NCBI GenBank assembly: GCA_048938385.1
Contig: JBHLMG010000004.1
Coordinates: 1-56,983 of the forward strand
Direction: 5' to 3'
From: Promethearchaeota archaeon
GTDB taxonomy: Archaea; Asgardarchaeota; Hermodarchaeia; Hermodarchaeales; Hermodarchaeaceae
DNA length: 56,983 nt
A program made the translations under genes and the position numbers. The notes under the pieces are model-generated. The model worked only from the letters and a program-made list of their open reading frames with translations, searched no databases and had not been told where the DNA came from. Positions 10,277 to 27,905 of the stretch are shown here, one piece after another (within the stretch, counting starts at the first letter, position 1; each line of letters opens with the position of its first letter).

Positions 10277-10287
10277 ATCGTCAAGGA

Positions 10288-13200
10288 TCATAGAATGCCG
10301 GGAAAGGGATTACCACAGAGACTATAAGCTAACCAACTATGAGGTGAGGGACCTTTACTTGCCAGTTTTCGTCGAGTGTGAAAAAGAGCTACGGCGATAG
10401 GGTCTCCTTCATATAGGTGTTTAAGTAGAGATTGTGTAAATACTGGTTGGAGTTGGGGTTCTGGTGTCCAGCGGGTAAAGAGGATAGAAGGTGCGCCAGC
10501 TGCTACTAAATGTCGAAGAAACCCTACAGTACTTAGACCATCGGCTCTTGGCTCTGTGCGTGTCGATTCATCTAAGACGAGGATAGGGGCTCCCCTGAAA
10601 ATTGAGGAGACTCCGATTTCTATCACTCGGAGGCTATCGGGGTGTTGTAGGGGAATTTCCCCCTTCCGATAGTGAAGGGTAGTCGGTGTTGAGAAGTAAA
10701 GGAGTGTGCGTGGTTGGTCAACATTGCGAGCAAGTTGGGCACGAGTAAATTCACGACCAAAAAGGACGATAGGTTCGTTGACTTTTTGTTGGTTGGGAAC
10801 GGCTGCCAGAAATACTCTAGCAATCTCTTCGGCTCTTTGCCTCCGGGCAGACCGGCCATCAGGGTTTGAATTTACTCCTAACAAAACCGTTGTTGGTCCT
10901 GATTGGGCAAGGGCTTTTGTTTTAAGGCTGCTTTCTAGACATTGGAAATCAGGAACCCATGCCATTGGATGCTTTAATCCCCAATACTCTTTGCCATCAT
11001 ACATGATATCAAAGGGCACATTGTTGAGAAATCCATCTGTGATGAATTGTAAAAATCCGTAGGTATGGGTTTGGAGTTCTCGATCTAACCGACTGGGTAT
11101 TAGGCTTCGGTACAAAAAAGAGGCCATGTCTCTTAAATCAACGATGGAGGGCAACTCTTGGGTGGTTTTTACCTGTTGAAGCCTTTGTACAACAGACTCT
11201 AAGTCAGCGGAAATCGGAAGAATGTGAAGGGTATGTCGACCAACATGATCAAGCGTGGTGATGATAATCCGTTGTTTTTCGTCAAGCACATCATAATTAA
11301 TCAATATCCATCGTCGATCTGGAGGCATCAAGGCAGTCAGTTTTTCTAGCATTCTGTAATCATTGGGCACCATTCCTCTGCCCGGGTCTTGACAAGCTGC
11401 AGCTATCACATTACGGTTGATGTTAATGTTTTCGAGTACTTCGTCTAATTCAGATCTCAACGCAGTGCGACGGGTTTGTGTTTCCTCTTGGTTTACACCT
11501 TCGAATGTTGTTTGGCTTAGTTGCTGTCGGAGTTCGCTAGCTTTGGTAAGAAGGCTTTGGTCCTCATTCATAAGTTTGGAAAGTTCAGGACAACGTTCGA
11601 ACCCCAGGGTCTCAGCTAAAAATGGATGAAGGCGTATCACTTTACGAGGAGTGGACCAATCAATAACCCTGTTGATGATTGCGCGGTCCGCATGTTTGTG
11701 GTAGTAATGGGCCGCAATATTGATGGCTTCTCCAACAATCTGTTGAGTGTGCTTCCACTCCAACGGGCGTTCGATACTTCCCGTTGCAGGGATGTCTAAT
11801 TCTTCGGCAACTCTAACAGCTTCAGTAATTAACTCGAGGGCTTGTTGGTAATCTTCAGTCTGTGCGAGCAGGTTTGCATGGTGTTGAAGCACAACAAGTA
11901 ATTCCTGCGTTAATTCTTTAGTCTTAAAAATTGTAGTTGCCGCATTGTAGTATTTTAAGGCGGCTTTGGCGTCTTCCATTTCTATGAGTGGACCAAGTTC
12001 AAGACATATTCTCCCTCTTAATACCTCATCCTTTTGGGGATCTATTGTTTGAAGAGCACCAAGGAGTGCTTCCTTTTGGAGATTGGGTTTTTTTAAGTGG
12101 CGATAGGCTTCAGCAAGATGGTGGTATGTGGCGCTCTTATCGAAGTAGGAACTATCCTTGAAATCCTTGATGGCCTGGCTAAGATATTGCGCCGCTTCTG
12201 AATATTGCTCATTTTTCATAAAAAGCAATCCGAGGTTAATCGCGGCTTCAGCCCGGAGTTCTTCCGGCAAATTTTCAGAACGAATGGTGTTTTCAAGGGT
12301 GCTCCTGATTTGATCAGGGGTTTGAGATTTCTGGTCCAATAGAGCAAGGCTCACCCCAAGTGATGAGGCAAGCCAGTTTTTCCCTTGGGTGGTGGCTTCT
12401 CGTTCAGCTTTTCGAAGAAAAGCGAGATCCTCTTGAAGGCGTTGGCTTTGCTGCAAAGCATTCAAGAGAAGACGATAGGCTTTGATTTCAAGGCTCTCTT
12501 CTTGCTGGCTTCTCAGGAGCTGGATTGCCATTTTGCTTTGCTCGATGGCATCTCTGAACTGTGCGAGCTGAAAGAAAGTATTAGCGACTTGAATGTAGAT
12601 TTGTGCTTCCTGAACTGGGCGTTTGTGTTCTTGGTAGTACCTAATGGCTTGGGTAAATTCCTGCTCAGCTTGTCGTCGGTTTCCTAGTCGGAGAAGCGCG
12701 ATACCTTTTGTCACATGGGTTTGTAGCAGTCGTGCCTGTTCGCCAACTTGTGAAAACATTTCAATAGCCTTATCAAAAAGGCGTAAGGATCTAATGTCTT
12801 GGACGAGGTGTTCTAGGATCTGAGCAACAACGATGGCAGTTTCAGCATACGCAAGTAAATTTTGTTGAGATTGAAAATACTGCAGAGCTGCTTCACCAAG
12901 GGGAAGAGCAGTTTCAGGCTGTCCCCTTTGCAGCAAAATGCGTGCTTTGTGATATTTGGTTAGAGCCGTTCCCATCGCATCAGCGGATTTTAAAAAGAAA
13001 GCTTCAGCTCGTTGAATACAGGCTTCAGCTTGATCAAATAAGTCCTTCGCCAAATAGGTGCTTGCAAGTCCTAATTGAGCATAAGCACCTAGTTCTGGAT
13101 TTCCTATTTGTTTCCAGAGTTGGATGAGCTGTAAGAACACCTTCTCCGCTTTATCGGGTTCCTCCAGCTGTTGCAAGATCCGGGCATACTCAGCTAATGT

Positions 13201-13704
13201 ATCTCCGTGAAGTTGTTGGTCTCCTAAATCTTTCGTGATTCCTAGTGCCTCGGTCAATCTAGTAGCACTCTCTCGATATCTACCTGCTCGTGCTAAGGCT
13301 TGACTGATTTCTGTTAACAAGATCACACGGTGTCTTCTATCCTCGCTAGGGCTCGAAATTTCTGCAGCTTGTTCAAGAGCTTGAGTGGCTTCTTCAAGGT
13401 ATCCAAAACTCTGCATGGTCCGCCCCATAGTGATCAGAGACTGTTTCAGAGCTGCAGGATCCGTTTGCTCTCGAAGAATCCGAACTGCTTGAGTGCTACT
13501 TACGAGCGCCTCTTTGTAGCGACCTAGTTCATGTAGAGCCCGAGCAATGTAGGTGCTAACGATGCCGGTTTTTCGTTTTTCTCCCTCTTCTTTATAGATG
13601 TTCAGGGCTAGATTCCATTCCTGTAAAGCCTTCTCAGGTTTTTTCTCCTTGAAATAGCGGAGACCGCTGTTAAACAATTCATCGCCCTTCGGTGGGGTTG
13701 ACAC
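10288..13704 (-). CDS. TPR-repeat protein with C-terminal CHAT (caspase/separase-like) domain, catalytic dyad degenerate
   Basis: About 640 aa of TPR-like repeats. CHAT hallmarks are LYRSLIP, FITDGFLNNVPFD, AGAPSILFTRW and WLAYSLCGNP. Confidence 0.85.
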   Translation of the reverse strand: MSTPPKGDELFNSGLRYFKEKKPEKALQEWNLALNIYKEEGEKRKTGIVSTYIARALHELGRYKEALVSSTQAVRILREQTDPAALKQSLITMGRTMQSFGYLEEATQALEQAAEISSPSEDRRHRVILLTEISQALARAGRYRESATRLTEALGITKDLGDQQLHGDTLAEYARILQQLEEPDKAEKVFLQLIQLWKQIGNPELGAYAQLGLASTYLAKDLFDQAEACIQRAEAFFLKSADAMGTALTKYHKARILLQRGQPETALPLGEAALQYFQSQQNLLAYAETAIVVAQILEHLVQDIRSLRLFDKAIEMFSQVGEQARLLQTHVTKGIALLRLGNRRQAEQEFTQAIRYYQEHKRPVQEAQIYIQVANTFFQLAQFRDAIEQSKMAIQLLRSQQEESLEIKAYRLLLNALQQSQRLQEDLAFLRKAEREATTQGKNWLASSLGVSLALLDQKSQTPDQIRSTLENTIRSENLPEELRAEAAINLGLLFMKNEQYSEAAQYLSQAIKDFKDSSYFDKSATYHHLAEAYRHLKKPNLQKEALLGALQTIDPQKDEVLRGRICLELGPLIEMEDAKAALKYYNAATTIFKTKELTQELLVVLQHHANLLAQTEDYQQALELITEAVRVAEELDIPATGSIERPLEWKHTQQIVGEAINIAAHYYHKHADRAIINRVIDWSTPRKVIRLHPFLAETLGFERCPELSKLMNEDQSLLTKASELRQQLSQTTFEGVNQEETQTRRTALRSELDEVLENININRNVIAAACQDPGRGMVPNDYRMLEKLTALMPPDRRWILINYDVLDEKQRIIITTLDHVGRHTLHILPISADLESVVQRLQQVKTTQELPSIVDLRDMASFLYRSLIPSRLDRELQTHTYGFLQFITDGFLNNVPFDIMYDGKEYWGLKHPMAWVPDFQCLESSLKTKALAQSGPTTVLLGVNSNPDGRSARRQRAEEIARVFLAAVPNQQKVNEPIVLFGREFTRAQLARNVDQPRTLLYFSTPTTLHYRKGEIPLQHPDSLRVIEIGVSSIFRGAPILVLDESTRTEPRADGLSTVGFLRHLVAAGAPSILFTRWTPEPQLQPVFTQSLLKHLYEGDPIAVALFHTRRKLASKGPSPHSWLAYSLCGNPFPGIL

Positions 13705-13848: not shown

Positions 13849-15468
13849 CTAGTCAATATAACCCAGGCTTCTAAGTCGATCTTTAATTTCCTCTTCCTCT
13901 TGCTTGCTTAGTTGGACTTGCCTTCGCTTCTCATCTTTTGAGGTATAGAACTTTGGTTTCCTCTTTGCAGGATCAGAATCTGCAAGAAAAATCTCCTCTT
14001 TCACTTCTCCATCCACATCATCAGGTATGGGTAGGTCAAACAAATGGAGGATCGTTGGGGTGATGTCTTGTAGATCAATCTCAGAAATGGAGTGGCCGGC
14101 TTTAATCCATCCACCTTTCGCCATAAATACTCCACTCCGTTCGTGAGTTCCCTTGATTTGTGAAAGGCGTTCAAGGATGTTTTTGCCCGAAAGCGTTTTG
14201 GTTGCCTTATAATCCTCTGAGAGTAGGAGAATCAGATCAGGTGCATTATCTACAAAAGGTCCAGTGTAAATATCACGACGATGGAATACTGCGTTCACAA
14301 CAGAATTTCCCGATTCTGGGTCTTTCAGGTCGGAAAACGCTTTCTTTAACTTGTTGACAAGTTCTTCATATTCTTCTGAAGTTGAAGCATTAATTGTAAT
14401 ACTCTGGGTTTCAGCGGTAAATGTTGGAGAAAAGTATGCCTTGCTCCTCTTTTCATCTACTTCGAGGTGTGAAGGGGAAATGTATCGACGGAATGATGGT
14501 CCAGCAAGCTTGCGTAATTTGTTCCATAACGGTGGAGGAATGATGTTGCGCAGGCGTGACCGATAGATTCCCATACGAGCTAATACTGATGCGAACCGTT
14601 CCGCTTGGATGGGTTTGATCTTCGTTGTTTCCTGTAACCTCTTCTCTTTTCGGTGCTTCTGTTGTATCGTTAATAAACCAAGCTGGTTCAAATAGAGGTT
14701 GATGTGAAAGTCTTTCTTATACGGTGCGAACCCATGATCTGAGAAGATGAATAGGTGAGTGTTAGGATATTCTAATAGCAATTCACCTAAAATTCGATCG
14801 ACATGCTCATAGATTGATAATACTCCTTTTTGGTCGGCCCATCGGTGATGGGCCACAATATCTGTGGCACGAAATAACGCAACAAACAAGTCCCATTCCC
14901 CCTTCTGCATAAGATACCGGATAGCAGTATGTCGTTTGGTGAGTAATTCGTGCAGTTTAGGGAGGAATTGGGAAGGATTCGTGTCTGCAATTGAGGAATC
15001 AAATTGGACAGGGTAACCACCTGTTAAATTGTCCAGTTCTTCCATCAGTTGCTTTGGATGGGCAAAGTCTCTGCCTATTGGAGTTAGCATACCTGAGATG
15101 ATGATCCCGTCAATATTTTCAGGGGGGAATGTAAGGGGAACATTAACTACGATGCATTTCTTGCCAAAATCACTAAGGATGCGCCAAAGGGTCTTTCCTG
15201 TGATTTGAGTAGAATCCATTAAAATTGTCTTTGAGTCTTTTTTTCCCATGAAATCAAAGATTCCGTGTTTACCACAGTTTTTCCCGGTCATCAGTGTTGG
15301 AAACGCTGGGATCGTAGCTGGTGGAATGGTTGATCGCAGAACTCCACTTATACCCGTCTCGATTATCTGTTGAAAGGCTGGTAACTTTCCTGAACTGATT
15401 CCGGGTCTAATTACTCGAAAAGTTCCACCATCGATACCGATTAACAGTACCCTCGGCGTTGCATCCAT
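13849..15468 (-). CDS. Alkaline phosphatase superfamily (type I phosphodiesterase/nucleotide pyrophosphatase-like) protein
   Basis: Motifs IGIDGG, STIPPATIPAFPTLMTG..GKHGIFDF, FSDHGF, DITPTIL and C-terminal RLRSLGYI. Confidence 0.9.
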   Translation of the reverse strand: MDATPRVLLIGIDGGTFRVIRPGISSGKLPAFQQIIETGISGVLRSTIPPATIPAFPTLMTGKNCGKHGIFDFMGKKDSKTILMDSTQITGKTLWRILSDFGKKCIVVNVPLTFPPENIDGIIISGMLTPIGRDFAHPKQLMEELDNLTGGYPVQFDSSIADTNPSQFLPKLHELLTKRHTAIRYLMQKGEWDLFVALFRATDIVAHHRWADQKGVLSIYEHVDRILGELLLEYPNTHLFIFSDHGFAPYKKDFHINLYLNQLGLLTIQQKHRKEKRLQETTKIKPIQAERFASVLARMGIYRSRLRNIIPPPLWNKLRKLAGPSFRRYISPSHLEVDEKRSKAYFSPTFTAETQSITINASTSEEYEELVNKLKKAFSDLKDPESGNSVVNAVFHRRDIYTGPFVDNAPDLILLLSEDYKATKTLSGKNILERLSQIKGTHERSGVFMAKGGWIKAGHSISEIDLQDITPTILHLFDLPIPDDVDGEVKEEIFLADSDPAKRKPKFYTSKDEKRRQVQLSKQEEEEIKDRLRSLGYID

Positions 15469-15617
15469 GTCGTTTCACACTGTGTTCTAATCATTGAGGT
15501 ATCTACTTGAGGGTTATAATGTTTATTCCAAACATCATTCGCCATTTTCTCTTCTTGCTTAGCAGCACCTGAGAAAATCTTTTGCTCTTGAATAGATTTT
15601 AATTAGGCAACAAAGCT

Positions 15618-17243
15618 GTGTCAATATGTTCCTTCACCTCAAATCTGAGGATGTTGTATGAAGTAATGCCACTCACAACTCAGAATAATGCCAATCCTGT
15701 CAAGGTATTATTGATAGGTCTTGACGGGGCTAGCTTCAATTATATCAAGCCTTGGGTAAAAGATTCCAGTTTACCCAATTTAGCAAAGATCATCAAAGAA
15801 GGTGTTTCCGGTCCATTAATCTCCACGATTCCCTCGGTGACTCCACCCGCTTGGACATCAATGCTAACAGGAACCAATCCTGGCAAACATGGAATTTTTC
15901 ACTTCCACGACCTTTATGCAAGACCTCAGAAATCAATCGTCATCAACGCAACTCATCAACGAGATCTAACCCTCTGGGACATTTTAACCGAAGTTGGATT
16001 GCCAAGCATTTTTCTAAATGTTCCAATGACTTATCCACCCGACCCTATCAATGGAATCATGGTTACTGGCTTTTTAACTCCACCAACCTCTGAAGATTAC
16101 ATTCATCCTCAATCGCTTCGTGATCAAATTGATGCTATGGGCTATCAAATCGGTCAGATGTTTGGAGCTCGGTCACATCTTACATACGAGCAAATTGGAA
16201 GGCATATCCAGGCCCGTACTAAAACTGCGAAATGGTTGATGAAGAACCATGAATGGGCTCTCTTCATGGTAGTCTACATGGCCTCAGATGGCGTGGTTCA
16301 TCGGTATCCTGAGAATCCTGCGATAATCAAACATGTCTATAAACTTCTTGACACAGCCATTGGAGAATTAATAGACGCGGCTCCTCCTAACACAGTTGTT
16401 CTTGTTACTTCAGATCACGGAATTGGGTTACTTGACAAGCAATTCATGATTAACACTTGGCTGCGCAATCATTCATTCCTGCAATTCAGGGCGAAACCGC
16501 GAACGGTATCGAACAAAACAACAAAGAACCTTCTGGGAAGAATTGGAGGCATTAAACCAGTCAACCGCTTGCTTCACATCCTTCCTTTTCAACTCCGTAG
16601 AAAGATTTTCCGACAGGTTGTACCGAAATACTCTGATATCGATGTAACGAAATCACTTGCGTGGGGCGTAGCCTCAACTCGTAACTTCGCATTTATGGGA
16701 ATTAATCCATCACCAGATAAGAAAGAATTAGTGGAAAACCTCTACAATAAACTCAGTCAAATCACTGATCCCCGTACTGGACAAAGAATTGTAAAAGCCG
16801 TGCATCCGAGTAATGCTTTGCTGTGGGGTCCTGCGCTTGAAGGAGCACCACAAATTATCATTGAAACGCAGGAGGATTATGGGATAAAATGCGGGTTCAC
16901 TCATGACCGTAACGAAATTCGCCATTATACCAAACCGCTCGCCGCTCATACACGGGAAGGCATATTTCTGGCTTGCGGACCCGGTATCAAGACCCAAAAC
17001 CCAGAACAATTTTCCCCTCTTATCTGGGATGTAATGCCGACTATCCTACAAATATTAAATGTTGCACCACCCCACAATTTGGATGGACGCATCTTGCATG
17101 AGATATTTGAACCTGATTCGCCCTTCTCTCAAGAAAAACTCCAACCTGCAACCTATCGTAAGAGACAACGATCAAGGAAAGATCTAACCGCTGAAGAACA
17201 AAAACGAATTACTGATCGCCTTGAACAATTAGGCTACATGTAA
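15618..17243 (+). CDS. Alkaline phosphatase superfamily protein (paralog of the divergent neighbour; real start probably ~15666)
   Basis: Motifs IGLDGA, STIPSVTPPAWTSMLTGTNPGKHGIF, TSDHG, DVMPTIL and RLEQLGYM. Confidence 0.9.
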   Translation: MSICSFTSNLRMLYEVMPLTTQNNANPVKVLLIGLDGASFNYIKPWVKDSSLPNLAKIIKEGVSGPLISTIPSVTPPAWTSMLTGTNPGKHGIFHFHDLYARPQKSIVINATHQRDLTLWDILTEVGLPSIFLNVPMTYPPDPINGIMVTGFLTPPTSEDYIHPQSLRDQIDAMGYQIGQMFGARSHLTYEQIGRHIQARTKTAKWLMKNHEWALFMVVYMASDGVVHRYPENPAIIKHVYKLLDTAIGELIDAAPPNTVVLVTSDHGIGLLDKQFMINTWLRNHSFLQFRAKPRTVSNKTTKNLLGRIGGIKPVNRLLHILPFQLRRKIFRQVVPKYSDIDVTKSLAWGVASTRNFAFMGINPSPDKKELVENLYNKLSQITDPRTGQRIVKAVHPSNALLWGPALEGAPQIIIETQEDYGIKCGFTHDRNEIRHYTKPLAAHTREGIFLACGPGIKTQNPEQFSPLIWDVMPTILQILNVAPPHNLDGRILHEIFEPDSPFSQEKLQPATYRKRQRSRKDLTAEEQKRITDRLEQLGYM

Positions 17244-17276
17244 AATGCGTTTTAGTAAAATCAGATTTACATCAGA

Positions 17277-18395
17277 ATGATGAAAGGTGTTTATGACTCG
17301 GGTGACAAATTCTTGCGTATCTGTATGGTAAATGAAGTGGCAAATCAGGCGTTTCATCTCACGAAGGGCTTAGTACGCAATGGACATCAAGTCAAAGTCA
17401 TTTTGCATGAAAGTAAAAGATCAGATACCCTGCTTTTTTCTCAACAAACCATTCCTAATGTGGAAGTTTGTTGGCTCAAGGGAGGTCCAAGGAAGTTTCG
17501 TGCCATCACTATGGCCTCTCCGTTAATCCAGGAAATTGTAAATTTTAAGCCAGATCTAATTCATACGCATTATCTTCGAACTCTAGTTCTTCTATCTACG
17601 ATTGCTGCAATAGCGCTTCGTGTACCAGTAATTGGGGTCGCCCATGGCTCCGATATCCGTGGCTTTCGGCAGCAACTTCTTCGGCGAGCGGTATTACGGA
17701 TTTTCATGCACCGAATTAATCGCATAATTCTTACTGCGAAGCATTTCAAAAAAGAGGCGTTTATGGTTCCACAAGAAAAAATGGTGTACATTCCTCGAAT
17801 AATTGATACCGACCTCTTTCAACCTGGTGAGGCATCGCCTGAATTGCGGAATAAATATGGCGAAAAGGTCATCCTCTCAGTGGCTAGTCTCACAAAGATT
17901 AAAACACCAGAAAAAATGGTGCGTGCTTTTCGCTTTGTGGTTGATGAAATACCTGATGCGCAGCTTCTATTCTGTGGAGATGGCCCTGAGAAATCTACGC
18001 TACTTCAACTGCGCGATGATCTAGGCTTGACAAACAATGTTGCCTTTTTGGGAAATGTTCCCAATAGCCAAATGCCTAAATATTATAATTTTGCACGAGC
18101 TGAAGCCCACGCTTTTAATCGCCGAACTCCTGCTTTAGGCATTTCACACTTAGAAGCTCGGGCTTGTGGACTTCCTGTTGTCACCTATGTAGGGAGAAAA
18201 AAAATTCCTGGCGTGATCTCTGTTTATAATGAGAATGATATTGCTGAGGCTCTTATCCATCTTCTTCAGGATACCAAATATTCAGAACAACTTGGGCAAT
18301 TAGGCTTAGCGCATGTTCTCGCTCATTCAAGCATCGAAGCTGTGACCCAACAGACGCTCCAGCTTTATAATCAAGTTCTTGGGAAACGGAAATGA
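17277..18395 (+). CDS. Glycosyltransferase family 4 (GT-B)
   Basis: Motifs KPDLIHTH, AHGSDI, GDGPEK and LGISHLEARACGLPVV. Confidence 0.9.
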   Translation: MMKGVYDSGDKFLRICMVNEVANQAFHLTKGLVRNGHQVKVILHESKRSDTLLFSQQTIPNVEVCWLKGGPRKFRAITMASPLIQEIVNFKPDLIHTHYLRTLVLLSTIAAIALRVPVIGVAHGSDIRGFRQQLLRRAVLRIFMHRINRIILTAKHFKKEAFMVPQEKMVYIPRIIDTDLFQPGEASPELRNKYGEKVILSVASLTKIKTPEKMVRAFRFVVDEIPDAQLLFCGDGPEKSTLLQLRDDLGLTNNVAFLGNVPNSQMPKYYNFARAEAHAFNRRTPALGISHLEARACGLPVVTYVGRKKIPGVISVYNENDIAEALIHLLQDTKYSEQLGQLGLAHVLAHSSIEAVTQQTLQLYNQVLGKRK

Positions 18396-18504
18396 TTAGG
18401 TTAAATGCTGGTAAAAATGAAAATCTGCGAATGGCTTATAATTCAGAAATGCATGGAGACTTTCCATCGAAACTGCTGATAAAAACCTAGTAGATGTATG
18501 TCTC

Positions 18505-20031
18505 ATGGGAATTCGTTCAAAATATGCCAGAACAGCACTACTGAGCACTATACTCTCTAATGCTGGGTTTGTCATCAATCTCATTTACGGAAAAATACTC
18601 GCTGTTGTCATCACCAACCTAGATGAAGTGGGCATTATTGCCGCGCTCAATACAGTGGCAACATTGGTTCTTGGATTATCTACTTTAGGCATTCTATATA
18701 CCGTCACTCAAAAAGCCGCAGCTTCTCAGGGTAAGGGAGACGACAAAACAGCTAGAAGCATCATCTGGAAGGGTTCTTTGATCTATTATGTGACTAGCTT
18801 ACCTTTAGGAGCGGTATTGCTTTTTGTGTTTTTGATAACACAGAATTTACTGATATGGTTCATTCCCATGGCGATTTTCTTACTTTTGGGGCTAGTAATG
18901 AGCAGTCAACGAACTGCGATGAATAGTATGGTTGAACCAGATAAGGGCGTAGTGTTCTCGGGGTTCTATCGATGGACACAGTGGGGACTATCCTTAGGGC
19001 TCATGTACCTGTTTATTTTTCTATCAGTCCCTTACTTCTTTATTGGAATAATCTATGGTTGGGTCGTAAGCACCATCCTGTTTAGCATCATTGGATATTT
19101 GCTCACATCGAAATATGTGAAAGATGTGGACCGAAAACTAAGTCCTTCATCCATGGTCTATCTCAGTTTTGGACTTCCAGTGTTCGGAGCTTATGTGGTT
19201 CGGCTGGTGGGTCAGCAAATTGACAAGCTCTTCATCATGTATACAACTGGTTTAATTGATCCAAGTATATTGGCAAATTACTTCTTTGCTGCTCGAATTG
19301 GGAGCGCCTTGAATGAATTCTCTTTCAGTTTGACCGCTGGGCTAGTTGCTCTCCTTGGTGTCTTATTTGGAATCAGTAAAATACGCATGCAGCGGGCTCA
19401 TGCCGCTGTCCTTCGTTTTCTCCTTGTGATTACTATTCCTTTCTATACAGCAATTGCGGCCTTTGGAGAGCCAATCATTATTCTCTTGTTGGATCCTAAA
19501 TATTTTGGAATACGAACCTTTCTACCGTTTCTCACATTTGCCTTTCTCTTCGAGCTCATTATAGTAGTTCTTCTAATGGGTCGAAGAGCAACTGGAGAGC
19601 AGCGTATTATTCCGATCGTTTGGGGTGGGTTACTAGCAGTAAAATTGGGGCTTCTCGTCTTCGTTGGCTTCGATTTATTAGGAATTGCCATGACTATTCT
19701 CTTCTCTAATCTCGTCTTTGCGATTATCCTCGGATTTTATCTTCGTAAAGAAGTGAAGCTTGGGTGGTTTTGGATTAAGCTAGTTGTACCAATTCTCATT
19801 GTGTTAATTGCAGGAATGCTTAGTTTCTGGTTTTCTCTGGATGTGATTGCTTCTCTTCTCGTCTGTTTAATCGCTATCTTCATCTCAGTTTTTCTAAGCC
19901 TACGGCTACGATTACTCAGCATTGAGGATATAAACATCATTCGAAGCGTGATGCCCTCAAGAATGGTTCGATATGTGAATTTGATCGTGAAAATTGGTGG
20001 ATATCCTGTTGAGGTTTCCAATGAGAAATAA
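18505..20031 (+). CDS. Oligosaccharide flippase (Wzx/MOP family)
   Basis: About 13-14 TM segments; FGLPV...QIDKLFI...ANYFFAARI pattern; sits in a glycosylation cluster. Confidence 0.8.
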   Translation: MGIRSKYARTALLSTILSNAGFVINLIYGKILAVVITNLDEVGIIAALNTVATLVLGLSTLGILYTVTQKAAASQGKGDDKTARSIIWKGSLIYYVTSLPLGAVLLFVFLITQNLLIWFIPMAIFLLLGLVMSSQRTAMNSMVEPDKGVVFSGFYRWTQWGLSLGLMYLFIFLSVPYFFIGIIYGWVVSTILFSIIGYLLTSKYVKDVDRKLSPSSMVYLSFGLPVFGAYVVRLVGQQIDKLFIMYTTGLIDPSILANYFFAARIGSALNEFSFSLTAGLVALLGVLFGISKIRMQRAHAAVLRFLLVITIPFYTAIAAFGEPIIILLLDPKYFGIRTFLPFLTFAFLFELIIVVLLMGRRATGEQRIIPIVWGGLLAVKLGLLVFVGFDLLGIAMTILFSNLVFAIILGFYLRKEVKLGWFWIKLVVPILIVLIAGMLSFWFSLDVIASLLVCLIAIFISVFLSLRLRLLSIEDINIIRSVMPSRMVRYVNLIVKIGGYPVEVSNEK

Positions 20032-20057: not shown

Positions 20058-21122
20058 CTAAATGAGCTCTCCTATCTGTGGCTCTTTTGTAACTTCAACA
20101 AGTACAGGAGTTGTGTCAATTCCTCGTATCCAATATGTGTTTTCGGGAACTTCGGCGCGCGGTTCATCGAGTGTTTGCTCGTCAAGTTCTAAAGCCTGCT
20201 CAAAGAACTTCTTGACTAGGTTGTATCCGACCTTAGCGTACATGAAAGAAGGTGTAAAGAAACGCCCAGGATTGATTTCTGTAACACAGGGGACGTTGTC
20301 TTTGTTTTCTCGCATATCCACTCCAAAAACTCCATGAGGGCTTTTCGAGATGCTGTAGATGGTTTTTTTTCCAATTGAATGGACTTCGTCATCGTTGATG
20401 ACTCGAGCAATTGAGGGTGTGCCGGTAATGCCGCTTGGAGATACATGTCGTATGATGTACCGAATCCGTTCCCAAGCAATCGAACCTACGAGGTTTCCGT
20501 CAAAAAATACCCCTTGCCATGCCAGATTTCGACCAGGTAGGTATTCTTCAGCGCTAAAAGCTCCCCACCCTTCCCAGTAGTCAATCCATCGTTTCGCTAA
20601 TTCTCGATCATTTGCTGGAAGAGAACCACGCCCGCCAGCCCCCCTGATCAACCGAAGCCACACTGTAGATCCAAGTTCATCGAATGCCTTGTCAATATCT
20701 GAGGGATCAGTAACAAGGAATGCATTCGCGCAAGGAATATCTGCTTTATTTAAGGCATGAATTAGTTCATACTTATTGTGACAGAGCCTAACAACCTCAT
20801 TATTAGGTAGACAGGTTTTGGTGTGAATTTTTTCCCGGTTCTTGCTAATAGCCCCAACTTCAACATCAGGTTGGGCATGTATTAAATCGACACTTTCTTT
20901 CTCAATAATCTGATTAAGCGTTTGAATGTACTGGGAATCATCTGCTCGTGGTACGAGGTATTTTTGGTCATAGCCTGTTGTTAAGTAAATTTGCAGCTTA
21001 TCACAATCAACTCCAATCAATCGAAAAATGTCCTGGCCATGGCGTAGGCACCAGACGACATTCTGCGTAGGGGTTCCACCTGCTCCTGTGAGTAGGATAG
21101 TTTTTTTCGTCATTCTCATCAC
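20058..21122 (-). CDS. ATP-grasp ligase (short CarB-like/PylC-like architecture)
   Basis: N-terminal ILLTGAGG Rossmann-like domain; CHNK, GAGGRGS, EEYLPG and TEINPGRF. Confidence 0.85.
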   Translation of the reverse strand: MMRMTKKTILLTGAGGTPTQNVVWCLRHGQDIFRLIGVDCDKLQIYLTTGYDQKYLVPRADDSQYIQTLNQIIEKESVDLIHAQPDVEVGAISKNREKIHTKTCLPNNEVVRLCHNKYELIHALNKADIPCANAFLVTDPSDIDKAFDELGSTVWLRLIRGAGGRGSLPANDRELAKRWIDYWEGWGAFSAEEYLPGRNLAWQGVFFDGNLVGSIAWERIRYIIRHVSPSGITGTPSIARVINDDEVHSIGKKTIYSISKSPHGVFGVDMRENKDNVPCVTEINPGRFFTPSFMYAKVGYNLVKKFFEQALELDEQTLDEPRAEVPENTYWIRGIDTTPVLVEVTKEPQIGELI

Positions 21123-21187
21123 ACATTCTACACATTAGTCCAGCGTATAATGTTAAAGTTGATTGATTAATTTAGCGAGTCTAGTTT

Positions 21188-21808
21188 TCAAAACGATTTA
21201 AAAACGACTTTGATTGCCTCAAAGGCTTCCGCATATGCTCTATTAATTTTAAGGCCTCTTGATCTCATTAAGCTCTCGAGATACTCTTTATTGAAATACT
21301 GCTTTTTAGTTTCGATTTGGGACTGGTAGTTCCAAAGAGCCTGTATCTTTTTTTCAACATGATGATCTTGAAGCGGGATAAAACAGCTTTCTCTAAAAAC
21401 AATGAGATTCCAAGGAAGTTCGTATCCAAGGATGGTGCTATCTTTGAAAATGCGAAGCGCCTCATTGGTTACCGTTTGATGATCTTGATGCAAATCGTTT
21501 GTTGATGGGGTGAGTACTAAGTCAATTTCGGTTTCTTGGTTAAAGGCGTACAGAATGTCAAGGATTTCTTGTCTTAATTTTGGAAAAATTCTTACTTGAA
21601 TATCAAAGATCTTAAAATCTGAAACCCCAAGCACTGCTAAAGATTTCTTACATTCATTCTTAAGGCGCACTTTAGGTGCAGAAAACGCGTAATATGTGAC
21701 ATAGCTTCCATTCTCCACCAATCGTGCGATGGTTCCTCCTGCTCCTAGTTCTCCATCATCTGTATGGGGACTCAACACTAGAACATTTTTAAAAATTGGA
21801 TTTTTCAT
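21188..21808 (-). CDS. PIG-L/LmbE family N-acetylsugar deacetylase
   Basis: Motifs SPHTDDGELGAGG, DLHQDH, YE and AEAF. Confidence 0.92.
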   Translation of the reverse strand: MKNPIFKNVLVLSPHTDDGELGAGGTIARLVENGSYVTYYAFSAPKVRLKNECKKSLAVLGVSDFKIFDIQVRIFPKLRQEILDILYAFNQETEIDLVLTPSTNDLHQDHQTVTNEALRIFKDSTILGYELPWNLIVFRESCFIPLQDHHVEKKIQALWNYQSQIETKKQYFNKEYLESLMRSRGLKINRAYAEAFEAIKVVFKSF

Positions 21809-22860
21809 AGAACTCGTTTGCCTCCTTTGTGGAATATTTGATCCATGAATCTTACCATACGGCGACCATAATCAATTTTGAACTTATATTTCATAACTTC
21901 TTCTTCCGTGAGTTCACCTAATGCTAATTTAATTGCCAAATAAGGAGCAATTAGTTCTTTTTGATAAATAAAGGTGGAAACTCTGGGATTTATCTCAATC
22001 AACCTATTTGCAATGAATTGTAAATTAACACAATAACTTAATGGAATTGCCTTCAAAATAGTTCGAGTTTGTTCTATTAGATCGGGACGATCCACTAATT
22101 CTCCTCGTACTATTACTCCCCATCGAGCTTGTTCCACAGTTTTCACGGTGGTGAGTAATTCTCTTCCTTTCAGAGCTATACAATCACTGGTTAGCTCTCC
22201 TCCTTCAAGATATTCCATCAGAAGTAATTTTGGAAATGTGGGACTCTCTGAAAAAATCTCTTCAAACTCATGGAGTGACATAAACTTACTTTGTGGTTTC
22301 TGGCTTAGTAAGTGATTCTCGCGATCAACCTTGGCGTCGAGAATTCTAACCCCTCTACTCCCCTTTCCAATATGCGGTTTGAATATTACTGGAGACTCAG
22401 GATATCCTAGCTTTGTTGCACTAATCATGAATTCATCTAGAGTTTCAACGGAGTAGTACCGGGGTAGGGGTAATTTCGTGCTTTTTCGAAGGGTTTCATA
22501 CATCAAGTATTTGTTATTAGAAATCACGATGGGTTCTGGATCCGAAACAAGGACTCGGGTTCCTAACGCTTCAAATCTGGCTGCATTCTGAGCTAGAGGG
22601 TACACTTCAAAACTGGATTCGGGAAAGAGAATATCGGGCTGTTCTTTTTCTACAATATCGAGTAAGCGGGGAATGTAGTTCTCTGAATGACCGCTTGGAA
22701 CTGGGTAAAAGCCATCACAAAAAAAGCGTCCTATTGCCTCTTTGTCCATGTCTGTTCCAATGATCTCGATTGATCGTTCGCCATTGTTTTTGAGCATTTG
22801 AATAAGCGTTGACGCCCCGGGGCAACCGCATGCCGTAAGTATAATTTTCAACTTGCGCAT
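21805..22860 (-). CDS. ATP-grasp ligase
   Basis: Motifs ILTACG, NNKY, FKPHIGKGSRG, MEYLEG and NLQF...IEINPR. Confidence 0.88.
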   Translation of the reverse strand: MRKLKIILTACGCPGASTLIQMLKNNGERSIEIIGTDMDKEAIGRFFCDGFYPVPSGHSENYIPRLLDIVEKEQPDILFPESSFEVYPLAQNAARFEALGTRVLVSDPEPIVISNNKYLMYETLRKSTKLPLPRYYSVETLDEFMISATKLGYPESPVIFKPHIGKGSRGVRILDAKVDRENHLLSQKPQSKFMSLHEFEEIFSESPTFPKLLLMEYLEGGELTSDCIALKGRELLTTVKTVEQARWGVIVRGELVDRPDLIEQTRTILKAIPLSYCVNLQFIANRLIEINPRVSTFIYQKELIAPYLAIKLALGELTEEEVMKYKFKIDYGRRMVRFMDQIFHKGGKRVL

Positions 22861-22913
22861 TATAGGTCAGCTCAGAACCATGCGCCTTTAACGAAATTAA
22901 AGCTTCCTTCCGA

Positions 22914-23423
22914 TTAGCCTTTTACTCTTTGCTGTTTTATTGTTGCGAATAGGTCTTGGGGAAGGAGGTAGGGTTCTTTGACGGCTTCAAATCGGAGGGA
23001 GAGGTGATAACTGGTGATGCCTTCGGTTTTACTCATTAGATCTCCGACGATTCGCTGCATTTCTTCTGCTGATGGAAACACTCCTTTAGCGTGGATGTTA
23101 TGGGCTCCCGTTACAACCCAGACAAGGTAGAAATATGGTGATTGAGCGATTGCTTCTGCGACGCGTTTAGTTAGGGCGGGCTCGCATTCCACTCCCACAG
23201 TAATAAAAATTGGTAGATGGAGTTTATCAGGGTTAATGATTACGCTGTATCCGGTGATAACGCCGTTGCGCTCCAGTTTGGAAATGTGATACCGGACTGT
23301 GGCCTCACTAACCTTCATGAGTTGAGCGATTCTTCGAACAGGAGCACGAGCATTTTGTGATAGTAGTTGAATCAGTTTAAATTCAAAATCAGTGATGTTC
23401 GTATCTTTCGCCATTAGCTTCAC
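22914..23423 (-). CDS. Lrp/AsnC family transcriptional regulator
   Basis: N-terminal HTH LSQNARAP..IA..MKVSEATVRY..KLE..GVITGY; C-terminal RAM domain with VTG. Confidence 0.92.
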   Translation of the reverse strand: MKLMAKDTNITDFEFKLIQLLSQNARAPVRRIAQLMKVSEATVRYHISKLERNGVITGYSVIINPDKLHLPIFITVGVECEPALTKRVAEAIAQSPYFYLVWVVTGAHNIHAKGVFPSAEEMQRIVGDLMSKTEGITSYHLSLRFEAVKEPYLLPQDLFATIKQQRVKG

Positions 23424-23590: not shown

Positions 23591-24313
23591 GTGATCTTAA
23601 TGACCGGGGCTCCTGAAAACTTGCTTGAGAAGATCGAAGCCAGTAAACAGATTATTGCCAAAGCACTTGAAAAGTATCCCCGAACTGCAGTTGCCTGTAG
23701 CTTTGGGAAAGACAGCCTAGTCGTGTTAGCATTGGCTCGAGAAGTAAAACCCGATATTCCCGTGTTCTCTGTGCTCACTCCCATGAAACCGCCAGAAACC
23801 TTTGCTTTCAAAGAGGAGCTCGAACATTTTTGGAATATCAATATTAGCGTCTATATGGCAGACCAGGAGCCTATCCCTGACCTTTGGAAAACGGATCCTG
23901 ATCAATGCTGTCAAATATTCAAAGTTGAACCAACTCTTGAAGCGCTCAAGGGATTGGATGCTTGGATTACTGGTCTTCGCAGAACCGAGGGGCGGACGCG
24001 TACTGACTTTGAACCTTTTGAAGTCTGTAATGGTACAATGAAAGTTAATCCCATTCTTGACTGGACTGAACTGGATATCTGGCGGTACACTGCTATCTTC
24101 GGTGTCCCTGTCAATCCCGCTTACCAAAAGGGTTATCGAAGTCTAGGTTGTGCACCTTGCACTGTTCTTGTTAAGGACAATGAAACAGAACGAGCGGGAA
24201 GATGGATTGGAACAAGCAAGTGCGGTGGAGAATGCGGGATTCACACTATGCATAAGAAAGGAAACGGTGGGAAGGTCAAACCCAGGAGTGAACCATGGGC
24301 GACTACCGCATAA
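23591..24313 (+). CDS. cysH: Adenosine 5'-phosphosulfate (APS)/PAPS reductase, [4Fe-4S] type
   Basis: Motifs SFGKDS, CC..FKVEP, WITGLRR, GYRSLGCAPCT, ERAGRW and ECGIH. The CC plus CxxC motifs indicate the Fe-S APS reductase type. Confidence 0.92.
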   Translation: MILMTGAPENLLEKIEASKQIIAKALEKYPRTAVACSFGKDSLVVLALAREVKPDIPVFSVLTPMKPPETFAFKEELEHFWNINISVYMADQEPIPDLWKTDPDQCCQIFKVEPTLEALKGLDAWITGLRRTEGRTRTDFEPFEVCNGTMKVNPILDWTELDIWRYTAIFGVPVNPAYQKGYRSLGCAPCTVLVKDNETERAGRWIGTSKCGGECGIHTMHKKGNGGKVKPRSEPWATTA

Positions 24314-25524
24314 TTTGCCCGCAATGTAAGAAAGAGTTTTCCGGTTATGCTCTTTCCTGCGAATGTTTCTCCCTTCTTCGAACAGAATATAGCAATTCTC
24401 TAAATATTCAAGCTTTACCTGGGCTTTGGCGTTTTCTAGATTGGCTACCCTGCAAGAAGCCACTAGACACTCAAGCAGGTTCAGTCACCTTTCGGAGTTC
24501 AAAGCTAGCGAAGGAACTCGGATTGAAGAATCTCTTCATTGCCTTTACTGGCTATTGGCCTGAGAAGCGGGCTTATAACCTAACGGGCTCGTTTAAAGAC
24601 CTTGAGTCTAACCCAACCATCGCTCGAGCGCAAGAGTCGGGTATCAAAGCCCTTGCCATTGCCTCAGCAGGAAACACAGCGCGTGCTTTTGCTCATCTAG
24701 CAAATAAGACAGGGTTTGATGTATATCTGGTCGTACCAAAATCTTGTTTGGATAAATTATGGACTCCCGAACCCCCAACCAGTAATGTCCACTTATTCAC
24801 CGTCGATGGGGATTATTGTAGTACCATTGAAGTAACCGCACAATTTTGTCAGGTCAACGGGATCACTCCAGAGGGTGGTGCAAAAAATGTTGCCAGGCGA
24901 GATGGAATGGGAACCGTGATGCTGGATGGCGCGTTCACCGTAAAGCGATTACCTGATCATTACTTCCAAGCCATAGGATCAGGAACTGGGGCTATTTCCT
25001 GTTGGGAAATGGCGGATCGGCTGAAAGCCAATGGATGGAAAGGCAATCCGGCTTTGCACCTTTCACAAAATCATCCTTTCATTCCAATAGTCAAGGCTTG
25101 GCAAGCAGGTCGTCGAGAAATTTTACCTGAAGACATGGTCGATCCTGAAGAAAGTATTAGGAAGATGCATGCCGTTGTGTTATCTAACCGCCATCCTCCC
25201 TATGCGATCGGCGGTGGCGTGTACGATGCTTTGACGGATACACAGGGAAAGATGTATTCGGTAAATAACGCTGAAGCGCAGAAAGCAGGAAAGCTATTCG
25301 AGGCACTCGAGGAGATTGATTTAGTTCCAGCTGCCGAAGTTGTTGTTGCTTCCCTGCTTCAGGCAGTGGAGGCGGGTACAATAAACAAAACAGACCACAT
25401 CCTTCTGAATGTCACGGGGGGTGGATTAAAGCGTCTCAAAGAGGATTTTGGTTTCTTTGAGATCGAACCCGAAGGCACTCTGAGCTTTGATAACTGCTCT
25501 TTAAATCCGAATAATGTGTATTGA
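24295..25524 (+). CDS. Cysteate synthase (PLP-dependent, threonine synthase paralog)
   Basis: GYWPE...GSFK (PLP Lys), ASAGNTARAF, EGGAKNVARRDGMGTVM, YFQAIGSGTG and VLSNRHPPY, as in Methanosarcina-type cysteate synthase; adjacent to comDE. Confidence 0.9.
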   Translation: MGDYRIICPQCKKEFSGYALSCECFSLLRTEYSNSLNIQALPGLWRFLDWLPCKKPLDTQAGSVTFRSSKLAKELGLKNLFIAFTGYWPEKRAYNLTGSFKDLESNPTIARAQESGIKALAIASAGNTARAFAHLANKTGFDVYLVVPKSCLDKLWTPEPPTSNVHLFTVDGDYCSTIEVTAQFCQVNGITPEGGAKNVARRDGMGTVMLDGAFTVKRLPDHYFQAIGSGTGAISCWEMADRLKANGWKGNPALHLSQNHPFIPIVKAWQAGRREILPEDMVDPEESIRKMHAVVLSNRHPPYAIGGGVYDALTDTQGKMYSVNNAEAQKAGKLFEALEEIDLVPAAEVVVASLLQAVEAGTINKTDHILLNVTGGGLKRLKEDFGFFEIEPEGTLSFDNCSLNPNNVY

Positions 25525-26674
25525 TATTTTTCAATTGCTATTGGTGACGAAAGTGAATGTTTCTGAAGAAATAATTGCCAAGCTGAAAACAGCAGACATC
25601 GATTTCTTTGCTACTTATCCCTGTGCAAAAATTCAGAGCCTTCTCATGTTAACTCACTCGCACTTCCAAAGTCTTGGGGTTACAAAAGAGGAAGAAGGTG
25701 TAGGCATCTGTGCTGGGGCTGCTCTAGCAGGAGCAAAGCCAGCTATGTTGATCCAAAGTACGGGTCTTGGAAATATGATCAACGCCCTCTGTTCGTTGAC
25801 GCTAACCTACCGCTTACCCTTATTGATAATGGTTAGCTGGCGTGGGGTTTATCAGGAAATTATTCCAGCTCAAACTCCCTTGGGGCAGAGCCTTCCTAAA
25901 ATCCTCAAAGCTATTGGTGCTACATTTTATGTTATCGAGAAACGCAGTAATCTAACAAGACTCGATAAAGCAATCAAGGAAACATATTCTCGAAATTCGC
26001 TTCAAGTGGTCCTGTTTAGCCCCCAATTATGGGAAAAGGAAGAATTTCCCGATGTTAGGCAGGAAAACTTTCTTAGTACAAATAGTGCGCCAAACCTTGC
26101 CCCTGTATCGGTCGAAAGAAAATTAACCCGATATGAGATACTCCAATCTTTAGCACCTTTCTTGGAAAAGAAAGTAGTAATATCGAATATCGGTTACCCA
26201 TCCCGTGAACTCTATCAGGTAAAACCACAACCATCGAATTTCTACATGCTTGGAAGCCTTGGACTAGCTTCAGCAATTGGTCTTGGCGGATCAGTTTTCA
26301 CTAAACGCGAAGTGGTGGTAATTGATGGTGATGGAAGCCTTTTGTCAAATCTTGGTGTTCTGGCCTCAATTGCTCAACTAGCTCCACCTAATCTAACTAT
26401 AGTCGCTATAGATAACAGCGCCCACGGATCAACAGGCAATCAAACTACTCCAACAGCAGGTACCGTAGATTTAGGGTTAACAGCTAAAGGTTTAGGAATT
26501 GAAAAGGTCTTCCGGTTTTCTGATCGTAAAGAACTCGAGGCACTTCCCTCAGTTATCGGTGAGGGACCAACCTTCCTTCATGTGATTGCTCGCGCAGGAA
26601 ACGCAAAGGTTCCTCCTATTCCATTGTCACCGACTGTAATAAAACAGATCTTCATGGAAGAACTCCAGAAATAG
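25514..26674 (+). CDS. comDE: Sulfopyruvate decarboxylase, fused alpha/beta ComDE (likely start GTG ~25553)
   Basis: Alpha half has KEEEGVGICAGA..AG and IQSTGLGNMINAL. Beta half has NIGYPSRELY, NFYMLGSLG, the TPP motif DGDGSLL...DN and GSTGNQ. Confidence 0.9.
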   Translation: MCIDIFQLLLVTKVNVSEEIIAKLKTADIDFFATYPCAKIQSLLMLTHSHFQSLGVTKEEEGVGICAGAALAGAKPAMLIQSTGLGNMINALCSLTLTYRLPLLIMVSWRGVYQEIIPAQTPLGQSLPKILKAIGATFYVIEKRSNLTRLDKAIKETYSRNSLQVVLFSPQLWEKEEFPDVRQENFLSTNSAPNLAPVSVERKLTRYEILQSLAPFLEKKVVISNIGYPSRELYQVKPQPSNFYMLGSLGLASAIGLGGSVFTKREVVVIDGDGSLLSNLGVLASIAQLAPPNLTIVAIDNSAHGSTGNQTTPTAGTVDLGLTAKGLGIEKVFRFSDRKELEALPSVIGEGPTFLHVIARAGNAKVPPIPLSPTVIKQIFMEELQK

Positions 26675-26783
26675 GATCTAGATTTTATTGTCCAATCGAT
26701 TTATAAATAAAAGCGAATATCGCTTTTTTCGATTTGCAAATACCGTCTCGGTAACCGTATTTGAATAACCGGGGCATTCTTCC

Positions 26784-27905
26784 ATGAAAATTCTTCATTT
26801 TTCCGATGTTGGACTCCCTGATACCCGAGTGGAACGCTCTGCATTGTTTGCAAAACAAAAAGGGTGGGAGGTAGTCTTCGCTGGTGGACGGCCACCGCAA
26901 ACCCAAATCTTCAATGCGTTCGAAACAATTCATTACCGGTACTGGAAGGCTTCGGAAAAAACTGGATTTCCAGGTACTCTACGCAGTATCCGCCGCTGGT
27001 TACAACGCTTACTTCATGATGAAGAACCTGACCTAATTCACGCGCACGACATATTTGCGGCTAAAATAGCACGCGAAATAGGTCATCCTTTCGTTTACGA
27101 TGATCACGAAATCTGGGGCTCACGAATCTCCTATCAAGGCTCTCAAGTGATAAAGCAAAATCGTACTTTGCTGCGTCAAATAGCCACATGGTTCGCCATT
27201 AGAAACTGGCGAAAATGGGAATCAGAGATTTTCAAAGCAGCTCCCATAATTACAGTAAGTGAAGAAATTGCAAAACTGTATCGCCGAATTAACTCTAATG
27301 TCTTCGCCATTCCTAATTTACCACTAAGACAGGAAATCGATCTCATACCGCCTAATGATAATGTTAATGATTCTTTTCGGGTCGCTTATGTGTCACGCCA
27401 TCGTCTGCCCTTAGAGCAGCGTCGGGATACACTTGCCTTGACTGTATGGCTTCAAAACCGCTTTGACGCCTCCTTAGTCTTTATTGGTCCCAAAGTAATT
27501 GAAACTGAGGAAGTTGAAAACCACGGATATGTTAGTCACCAAGAAATGCTTCGAATCTTATCAACTTGTGACATCGCCCTGATGGGTCAAAAAACTAGAC
27601 TTCCTGTCTACTCGTTTCAAAACCGGTTTCCTCTTTTTCTTCACGCAGGACTCAAAACGATTGTTCCGAATTCGAAAATTGTAGAGGCAAAATTTTGTAG
27701 GGATCATGCCGTGGGATGGTCGTGGCATTCTGCAGACAATTTAAAAACAATACTTAGGCGACAAGTTGTGGAATTTAACGCAGATGTTGAGCAATGGAAT
27801 CAAGATAAGGGGCGCGTCCGTGAAATTGCCAAGAAATACCTGGTGTGGAATTTCTTTGAAAAGCGGCTCGAAGAAGCATATGAAAGCGCTTTAACGATGA
27901 AATGA
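26784..27905 (+). CDS. GT-B fold glycosyltransferase (GT4-like)
   Basis: Motifs DTRVER, PDLIHAHD, VYDDHE, ITVSE and NRF..FLHAGL. Confidence 0.75.
   Translation: MKILHFSDVGLPDTRVERSALFAKQKGWEVVFAGGRPPQTQIFNAFETIHYRYWKASEKTGFPGTLRSIRRWLQRLLHDEEPDLIHAHDIFAAKIAREIGHPFVYDDHEIWGSRISYQGSQVIKQNRTLLRQIATWFAIRNWRKWESEIFKAAPIITVSEEIAKLYRRINSNVFAIPNLPLRQEIDLIPPNDNVNDSFRVAYVSRHRLPLEQRRDTLALTVWLQNRFDASLVFIGPKVIETEEVENHGYVSHQEMLRILSTCDIALMGQKTRLPVYSFQNRFPLFLHAGLKTIVPNSKIVEAKFCRDHAVGWSWHSADNLKTILRRQVVEFNADVEQWNQDKGRVREIAKKYLVWNFFEKRLEEAYESALTMK

Follow-up and report, generated by a model that had tools for sequence, protein, structure and literature searches.

A coupled cysH-cysteate synthase-ComDE cassette in a Hermodarchaeaceae genome: a candidate route from sulfate to a sulfonate other than coenzyme M

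The source of the sulfite that becomes the sulfonate of coenzyme M (CoM) and of cysteate in anaerobic archaea is an acknowledged gap, and archaeal homologues of adenosine 5'-phosphosulfate (APS) or 3'-phosphoadenosine 5'-phosphosulfate (PAPS) reductases have already been proposed as the suppliers (PMC6286981). A gene cassette of a Promethearchaeota archaeon (Asgardarchaeota; Hermodarchaeaceae) raises the same question together with a second one, as it places a reductase of this type directly ahead of cysteate synthase and a fused sulfopyruvate decarboxylase, ComDE: where does its sulfite come from, and what sulfonate is made? The window, meaning the whole stretch of DNA that was analysed (56,983 nucleotides; contig JBHLMG010000004.1 of assembly GCA_048938385.1), covers the first 57 kb of a contig that is 126 kb long, in an assembly of 2.48 Mb, 51 contigs and 89.8% completeness. 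With moderate confidence, the cassette is read here as a dedicated sulfate-to-sulfonate route whose product, of sulfoacetyl or tauryl type and not CoM, would be ligated to a glycoconjugate. The three genes at its center are as follows.

23600..24313, plus strand: cysH, thioredoxin-type sulfonucleotide reductase with a 4Fe-4S motif (PF01507, NF002537, motif alignment)
24295..25524, plus strand: cysteate synthase (CS), phosphoserine + sulfite to cysteate (TIGR03844)
25553..26674, plus strand: fused sulfopyruvate decarboxylase ComDE, sulfopyruvate to sulfoacetaldehyde (profile scores, synteny)

Taken as longest open reading frames, the iron-sulfur (Fe-S) CysH-type reductase, CS and ComDE span 23591-24313, 24295-25524 and 25514-26674. 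The start of cysH is most likely ATG 23600 and not GTG 23591, judging from relatives that begin there and from a GGTGA box ahead of it. On the same two grounds, relatives and a preceding GGTGA box, ComDE most likely starts at GTG 25553 and not ATG 25514, and therefore follows the CS stop after a 28-nt gap instead of overlapping it by 11 nt. The 19-nt overlap of reductase and CS noted in an earlier reading of the sequence without database searches (the sequence-only reading) is real: the ATG of CS at 24295 precedes the cysH stop, TAA 24311-24313, and a AGGAGTGA box lies 5' of the CS start. Homologous contigs in other genomes were recovered with an alignment as query, while a single-protein query gave none.

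The CysH protein scores 151 bits against PF01507 and 199 bits against NF002537, a model named phosphoadenylyl-sulfate reductase (cut-off 154), and 148 bits against the APS-specific model TIGR02055, below the cut-off of 235. Its CC (residues 103-104 in 237-aa numbering), CxxC (184/187) and ECGIH (211-215, catalytic Cys212) motifs, recognized already in the sequence-only reading, coincide in alignments with the cluster-binding and catalytic cysteines of Mycobacterium tuberculosis CysH (7LHR) and Pseudomonas aeruginosa APS reductase (2GOY). All 12 CS-linked CysH proteins compared carry the longer motif KCGGECGIH, in which an invariant extra Cys stands four residues ahead of the catalytic one (window 24221-24235, residues 208-212) and could act as a resolving cysteine. 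CysH probably reduces APS to sulfite; the pointers to APS rather than PAPS are a genome with no detected APS kinase and the Fe-S motif of the protein, neither of which measures specificity.

Cysteate synthase and threonine synthase are separated clearly by profile scores, the protein reaching 549 bits against TIGR03844 (cut-off 324.9) and 100 bits against the best threonine synthase model (cut-off 303). Across 24 diverse CS sequences, the lysine that binds pyridoxal 5'-phosphate (PLP), Lys101, is conserved in at least 90%, and Phe100 and further columns are invariant. In a tree, the protein lies far from the ThrC paralogues of the host (branch 4.26). On these scores, residues and tree position, the window gene is a true cysteate synthase.

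The alpha half of ComDE passes the cut-off of TIGR03845 (180 bits against 148), and the protein scores 200 bits against the phosphonopyruvate decarboxylase model TIGR03297, far below its cut-off of 312.5. Phosphoenolpyruvate (PEP) mutase is found in none of 19 genomes of the family, so that phosphonopyruvate would have no source; the phosphonate reading was ruled out on this ground, as was a ComA route to sulfopyruvate, ComA being likewise found in none of the 19. All three enzyme identities of the sequence-only reading thus hold, and of the two findings that would have overturned it, a threonine synthase in place of CS and a phosphonopyruvate decarboxylase in place of ComDE, neither was made. 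ComDE belongs to the syntenic core of the genus, holding its place beside NrdG/NrdD-linked genes in 12 of the 14 other genomes, and in 13 of 15 genomes it borders a variable glycan island. The pair cysH-CS is an insert directly upstream of it in 6 of 14 genus genomes, or about half of the species.

These data also bear on the possibility that the thiamine pyrophosphate (TPP) enzyme is not specific for sulfopyruvate but acts on phosphonopyruvate or some other 2-oxo acid, and that cysH-CS ends at cysteate, which would itself be ligated or built into a lipid. The beta half of ComDE, at 208.7 bits, falls just below its cut-off of 221.5, and six species of the genus have ComDE with neither CS nor ComA, so that the enzyme there must have another source of substrate or accept another 2-oxo acid. 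Spirochaetes, moreover, couple cysH-CS with an enzyme of the class I/II aminotransferase family in place of ComDE, which follows a capnine-like logic. The curated cut-off passed by the alpha half, the weak phosphonopyruvate decarboxylase score and the missing PEP mutase speak for sulfopyruvate, as does gene order: in most lineages with both genes CS adjoins ComDE, and cysH-CS was inserted exactly upstream of ComDE. On balance, a non-specific decarboxylase with cysteate as end product is regarded as the least probable of the explanations considered here.

The spirochaete loci (L139 and L158, Spirochaetota) deserve mention in their own right. In both, cysH lies beside CS and is followed by the class I/II aminotransferase-family gene, ComDE being absent; they may encode a route to sulfonolipids, similar to that of capnine, which supplies its own sulfite. 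ComD-like genes themselves are widespread, passing the TIGR03845 cut-off in 115 of 400 Asgard genomes, most of which lack CS, and they occur in several other settings. In a large Asgard family (among G150-G270 and others; L176-L186, L195), genes for a family III CoA-transferase and a protein with a JAB domain adjoin split ComD/ComE. Two further Asgard families (L196 in G116, 7718-10559; L198 in G114) have a nucleotidyltransferase and a CDP-alcohol phosphatidyltransferase directly ahead of split ComD/ComE, an arrangement that suggests a lipid or solute head group made from the decarboxylase product. A protein of NMT1/SsuA fold adjoins fused ComDE in unrelated archaea (L197 in G002, 8095-10258; L152 and L155, Hydrothermarchaeota).

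The sulfur metabolism encoded elsewhere in the genome indicates where the sulfite of the cassette could come from and go. Neither a sulfite reductase (NIR_SIR) nor an APS kinase was found in the genome at its 89.8% completeness, and ATP sulfurylase (sat) is represented only by a 214-residue fragment cut by a contig end (G000, contig C5, 1-642, minus strand). The fragment belongs to the lineage, because it is 62% identical to the sat of the sister genus. From the lack of sulfite reductase and APS kinase and the presence of the sat fragment, sulfate would be reduced only to sulfite, and the sulfite passed to CS; the proposal of the sequence-only reading that sulfate reduction ends at sulfite is thus supported by the gene content of this genome. 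That reading also took the supply to be self-contained, which it is not, as sat lies on another contig and was not found in five other species of the genus that have intact cysH-CS (genomes 72-91% complete). The missing sat in most genomes of the genus may be an assembly or binning blind spot; a gap in the source of APS has likewise been noted for methanogens and anaerobic methanotrophic archaea (ANME; PMC6286981). The window had been described as free of aminotransferase, ATP sulfurylase and sulfite reductase genes, and the statement can be widened for the first of these: neither class I/II nor class III aminotransferases occur on any part of the 126-kb contig. Elsewhere, the genome encodes at least four strong class I/II enzymes, and in Methanosarcina the transamination step is likewise left to a non-specific enzyme (PMC12068725).

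The link between the reductase and CS is recurrent: cysH adjoins CS in three Asgard families, in the sister clade, in ANME-1 and in Spirochaetota. When CS and CysH were modelled as a complex, the pair scored 0.65 (runs of 0.65, 0.00 and 0.75), against 0.00 for the best of three controls; among complexes of solved structure, 58 of 80 reached the mark of this scale, and among mismatched pairs 2 of 110. Across the runs, contact agreement was at least 0% and the predicted local distance difference test (pLDDT) value of the partner at least 65. The modelled interface joins CS residues 87-96, beside the PLP lysine Lys101, with CysH residues 158-178, just ahead of CxxC. To our knowledge no complex of the CysH and CS families has been solved, and a pass by memory seems unlikely for this reason. 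CysH thus probably binds CS, the model supporting such binding without showing it.

The next question is whether the sulfonate is CoM. The type II route to CoM employs CS plus fused ComDE (PMC12068725), and the paper that is given as the source for this phosphoserine pathway is Graham 2009, as cited in PMC6286981. Asgard archaea that have methyl-coenzyme M reductase (MCR) also possess CS and ComDE, and in Nitrospirota CS-ComDE lies beside genes like those for heterodisulfide reductase (Hdr) and for corrinoid activation, showing that the pair exists beyond methanogens. It could be supposed, then, that the cassette makes true CoM, the thiol being formed by an enzyme yet to be recognized, for a CoM-dependent enzyme of the cell's own or for a partner organism. 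The gene content of the genus argues otherwise. None of its 15 genomes has mcrA (PF02249; positive controls G127 and G122) or a member of COG1900/PF01837, which detects both MMP16/ComF and L-ASST. In the host, TIGR03287 (MMP16) finds only ferredoxin-like stretches of at most 34 bits (cut-off 364). In methanogens CS-ComDE usually has an MMP16 gene next to it, as it does in the Asgards with several mcrA genes (CS-ComDE-HdrCBA-MMP16 in G127 and G122) and in G398 (CS-ComDE-MMP16), whereas the window has glycan and ligase genes in place of Hdr or MMP16. Sister-clade operons, furthermore, finish with aldehyde dehydrogenase or CoA-ligase subunits. True CoM synthesis, which the sequence-only reading had offered as its alternative, is therefore considered quite unlikely. 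The related suggestion of a tie to Helarchaeales was not borne out either: the named relatives are Thor-, Hermod-, Hod- and Promethearchaeota, and MCR-bearing Asgards carry a different cluster. A Ras-family GTPase gene is present in the DNA and fits an Asgard host.

The Nitrospirota operon is conserved across four loci (L137, L148, L159 and L165) and consists of a RACo-type corrinoid activator, a DUF6951 protein, a 233-aa protein and an HdrD-like protein with Fer4 and CCG domains, with CS-ComDE last.

What the product may be instead is suggested by genes around the cassette, in the window and in relatives. The unit reaches past 23591-26674 and includes a downstream glycosyltransferase of family 4 (GT4; 26784-27905) and divergent Lrp, ATP-grasp and PIG-L genes (20058-23423), beyond which lies the variable part of the glycan island.

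26675..26783, plus strand: ComDE-GT4 spacer with a TTTATAAATA box, a short hairpin and a T6 run (read from sequence)
26784..27905, plus strand: lineage-specific GT4 glycosyltransferase (adjoins ComDE in three gene arrangements in the genus)
22914..23423, minus strand: divergent Lrp/AsnC regulator (176-nt control region common with cysH)
21805..22860, minus strand: ATP-grasp carboxylate-amine ligase 1 (family match, PylC-like_N / ATPgrasp_Ter)
21188..21808, minus strand: PIG-L family de-N-acetylase (best match BshB1, sub-threshold)
20058..21122, minus strand: ATP-grasp ligase 2 (47% identity to an ATP-grasp protein of sister-clade locus L199)
13849..20031: variable glycan part, with two Phosphodiest (AlkP-superfamily) genes, a GT4/GT1 glycosyltransferase and a 508-aa protein without family match

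The Lrp/AsnC gene beside cysH is conserved in the genus. The opposite border of the variable island is formed by a gene for a 1138-aa TPR-CHAT protein (10288-13704, minus strand), which is syntenic across the genus.

ATP-grasp genes flank cysH-CS-ComDE in at least four lineages (the genus, L199, a P0038 contig and L207); the ATP-grasp protein to which ligase 2 is 47% identical is encoded ahead of cysH-CS-ComD-ComE-aldehyde dehydrogenase in L199. A second line of evidence comes from a locus in which the cassette genes are broken. In L043 (G105:C14, 7965-12639), cysH, CS, ComDE and the homologue of ATP-grasp 2 are each split into two or three pieces, while Lrp, radical SAM and GT1 genes around them are intact, and this genome has no GT4. 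The pattern suggests the loss of one functional unit, although an assembly error would also account for it.

Operons of the sister clade extend the pathway past ComDE. On two contigs the operon runs cysH-CS-ComD-ComE-aldehyde dehydrogenase; one contig with this ending has sat and three Phosphodiest genes nearby (the distance between sat and the operon in L199 is 7 kb). Two others have cysH-CS-aminotransferase-ComD-ComE together with succinyl-CoA-ligase-like subunits, a set that recurs without cysH in L008. Phosphodiest and glycosyltransferase genes flank the sister-clade operons as well. With such endings, the operons would be expected to make sulfoacetate or a sulfoacetyl thioester and not a thiol.

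Putting these observations together, a seven-step route can be proposed. ATP sulfurylase, encoded elsewhere in the genome, would form APS, and the Fe-S reductase CysH would convert it to sulfite. CS, whose translation is coupled to that of CysH and which probably binds it, would combine the sulfite with phosphoserine to give cysteate. A housekeeping aminotransferase would then yield sulfopyruvate, and ComDE sulfoacetaldehyde, which would be either oxidized to sulfoacetate or transaminated to taurine. Finally, the adjacent ATP-grasp carboxylate-amine ligase would form an amide bond between the product and a sugar or glycan block prepared by PIG-L, GT4 and the variable island. A more specific form of this proposal is offered tentatively and seems possible at best: the CysH-CS complex would pass toxic sulfite to the PLP site, and the end result would be an N-sulfoacetyl- or tauryl-amide on an Asgard surface glycan, installed by ATP-grasp after de-N-acetylation by PIG-L.

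As regards the oxidation step, a tungsten-type aldehyde:ferredoxin oxidoreductase is encoded 17 kb downstream of the cassette (44095-45885, plus strand) and could be a non-dedicated oxidizer of sulfoacetaldehyde to sulfoacetate. A dedicated sulfoacetaldehyde dehydrogenase was sought and rejected, matches in the genus to the sister-clade aldehyde dehydrogenase being only 28-35% identical.

A simpler explanation of the same genes is that the cassette makes a small sulfonate in free form (for example taurine, isethionate or sulfoacetate, or a glycoside of one of these) that serves as a compatible solute or is excreted, the glycan genes being mere neighbors. The organism comes from sediment and mangrove metagenomes, and GT4 enzymes make solutes too, in keeping with sub-threshold matches to sucrose-phosphate synthase and BshA-type models. 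One sister-clade contig has a sulfonate-type ATP-binding cassette (ABC) transporter next to cysH, and the pair of ATP-grasp 1 and PIG-L is found independently of sulfonate genes. Set against this are the recurrence of ATP-grasp ligases by the operon in the four or more lineages above, the breakage of ATP-grasp 2 along with the sulfonate genes in G105, the fixed position of ComDE at the edge of the glycan island, and the lack of any reductase or aminotransferase in the island. A free sulfonate is accordingly judged improbable, if less so than CoM.

The route to a ligated sulfonate has difficulties of its own, and several observations weigh against it. Besides the sub-threshold beta half of ComDE, the species that have ComDE alone, the species without detectable sat and the one complex run that scored 0.00, the island holds no aldehyde dehydrogenase any more than a reductase or aminotransferase, and when the sister-clade aldehyde dehydrogenase was used as query, the sole match in the host was 33% identical, within the weak range of the genus as a whole. 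The link between GT4 and ComDE is limited to one genus, and the spacer between them resembles a terminator followed by a promoter, so that GT4 may have a promoter of its own. The trio of ATP-grasp 1, PIG-L and GT4 occurs in other Asgards without sulfonate genes, and its adjacency to the cassette may be mere neighborhood.

The GT4 protein itself is rare. About 25 orthologues were found among 5.8 billion proteins, the named ones all from Asgards (Hermod-, Hod- and Promethearchaeota), and GT4 adjoins ComDE in 8 of 14 genus genomes, in three arrangements. A sequence search of the PDB returned no match for GT4 and generic matches only for the ATP-grasp and PIG-L proteins; atlas look-ups gave only the generic names carboxylate-amine ligase and GT4. 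With respect to ATP-grasp 1, another Asgard genus (L074 in G075, 12802-13620; L075 in G067, 6257-7084) has an orthologue about 2.4 kb from a second, divergent gene of the PAPS_reduct family, which is 32-36% identical to the window cysH.

The sequence-only reading took CS plus fused ComDE to be the arrangement of Methanosarcinales/Methanomicrobiales, and its presence here to suggest horizontal transfer. Transfer as such is in line with the distribution of CS, a gene that only 17 of 400 Asgard genomes possess. A tree of 96 sequences places Asgard CS in at least five separate clades: the genus with the sister clade (support 99), two cysH-linked groups, an MCR-bearing pair, and a single sequence that groups with Spirochaetota and Cyanobacteria. 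Forcing them into one clade was 54.6 log-likelihood units worse (approximately unbiased, AU, test, p = 0.0175), the tested group having been chosen only after inspection of the tree. Several transfers of CS into Asgards are thus likely. The CS clade of the genus is not nested within either of these methanogen orders; as the deeper branches of the tree lack resolution, no donor can be named.

These findings have consequences for both questions raised at the outset. A coupled cysH-CS pair that recurs across lineages and is modelled to bind offers a direct, testable hypothesis on the source of sulfite. Labels of CoM biosynthesis in Asgard genomes are no evidence for alkane or methane metabolism. 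No paper linking cysteate synthase with Asgard archaea was found in the literature searched, and the cassette hints that cells of the archaeal group nearest to eukaryotes carry a sulfonated glycoconjugate, or a related metabolite, not described so far.

Comparison with known systems places the cassette among several pathways, each of which resembles it in part. With assimilatory Fe-S APS reductases (7LHR, 2GOY), CysH shares its PAPS_reduct fold, the cysteines of CC...CxxC that bind the cluster, and the catalytic cysteine in a C-terminal ECG(I/L)H motif. It differs in having no downstream sulfite reductase and in being coupled instead to a sulfite-consuming PLP enzyme, as well as in a 20-residue tail that is specific to the genus and overlaps the CS start. 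The extra Cys also sets CS-linked CysH apart from bacterial APS reductases of solved structure. The type II CoM pathway of Methanosarcinales/Methanomicrobiales (MA3297 CS, MA3298 ComDE, MA3299 MMP16/ComF; PMC12068725) has the same order of CS and fused ComDE and likewise relies on a housekeeping enzyme for the transamination of cysteate to sulfopyruvate. In contrast, the genus lacks MMP16/ComF, L-ASST and MCR, has a coupled cysH upstream, and bears ligase and glycan genes where Hdr or MMP16 would stand.

Cysteate synthase is used outside methanogenesis in the capnine (sulfonolipid) route as well, which consists of the cysteate synthase CapA and a cysteate acyltransferase. In the cassette, CS is followed by ComDE, and the contig lacks an acyltransferase of this family. 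Bacillithiol and mycothiol synthesis resembles the neighborhood in a different respect, bringing together a GT4 enzyme (BshA/MshA), a PIG-L deacetylase (BshB/MshB) and an ATP-dependent ligase, which stand side by side in the window too. The resemblance is one of gene classes: matches to BshA (89 bits, cut-off 274) and BshB1 (46 bits, cut-off 182) fall far short, BshC is not found, the ligase of the window is of the ATP-grasp type and not BshC/MshC, and no thiol-forming step is evident.

A further parallel is the decoration of glycans with 2-aminoethylphosphonate (AEP). AEP glycan loci encode PEP mutase, phosphonopyruvate decarboxylase and AEP transaminase, and share with the cassette a homologous TPP decarboxylase for a 3-substituted pyruvate whose gene lies in a variable surface-glycan locus. 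The chemistry here would be that of sulfonates, PEP mutase being absent, and amide ligation by ATP-grasp would take the place of nucleotidyl activation. If the more specific form of the proposal, with a decorated surface glycan, is correct, the surface sulfonate of these archaea would be a counterpart of phosphonate-decorated glycans.

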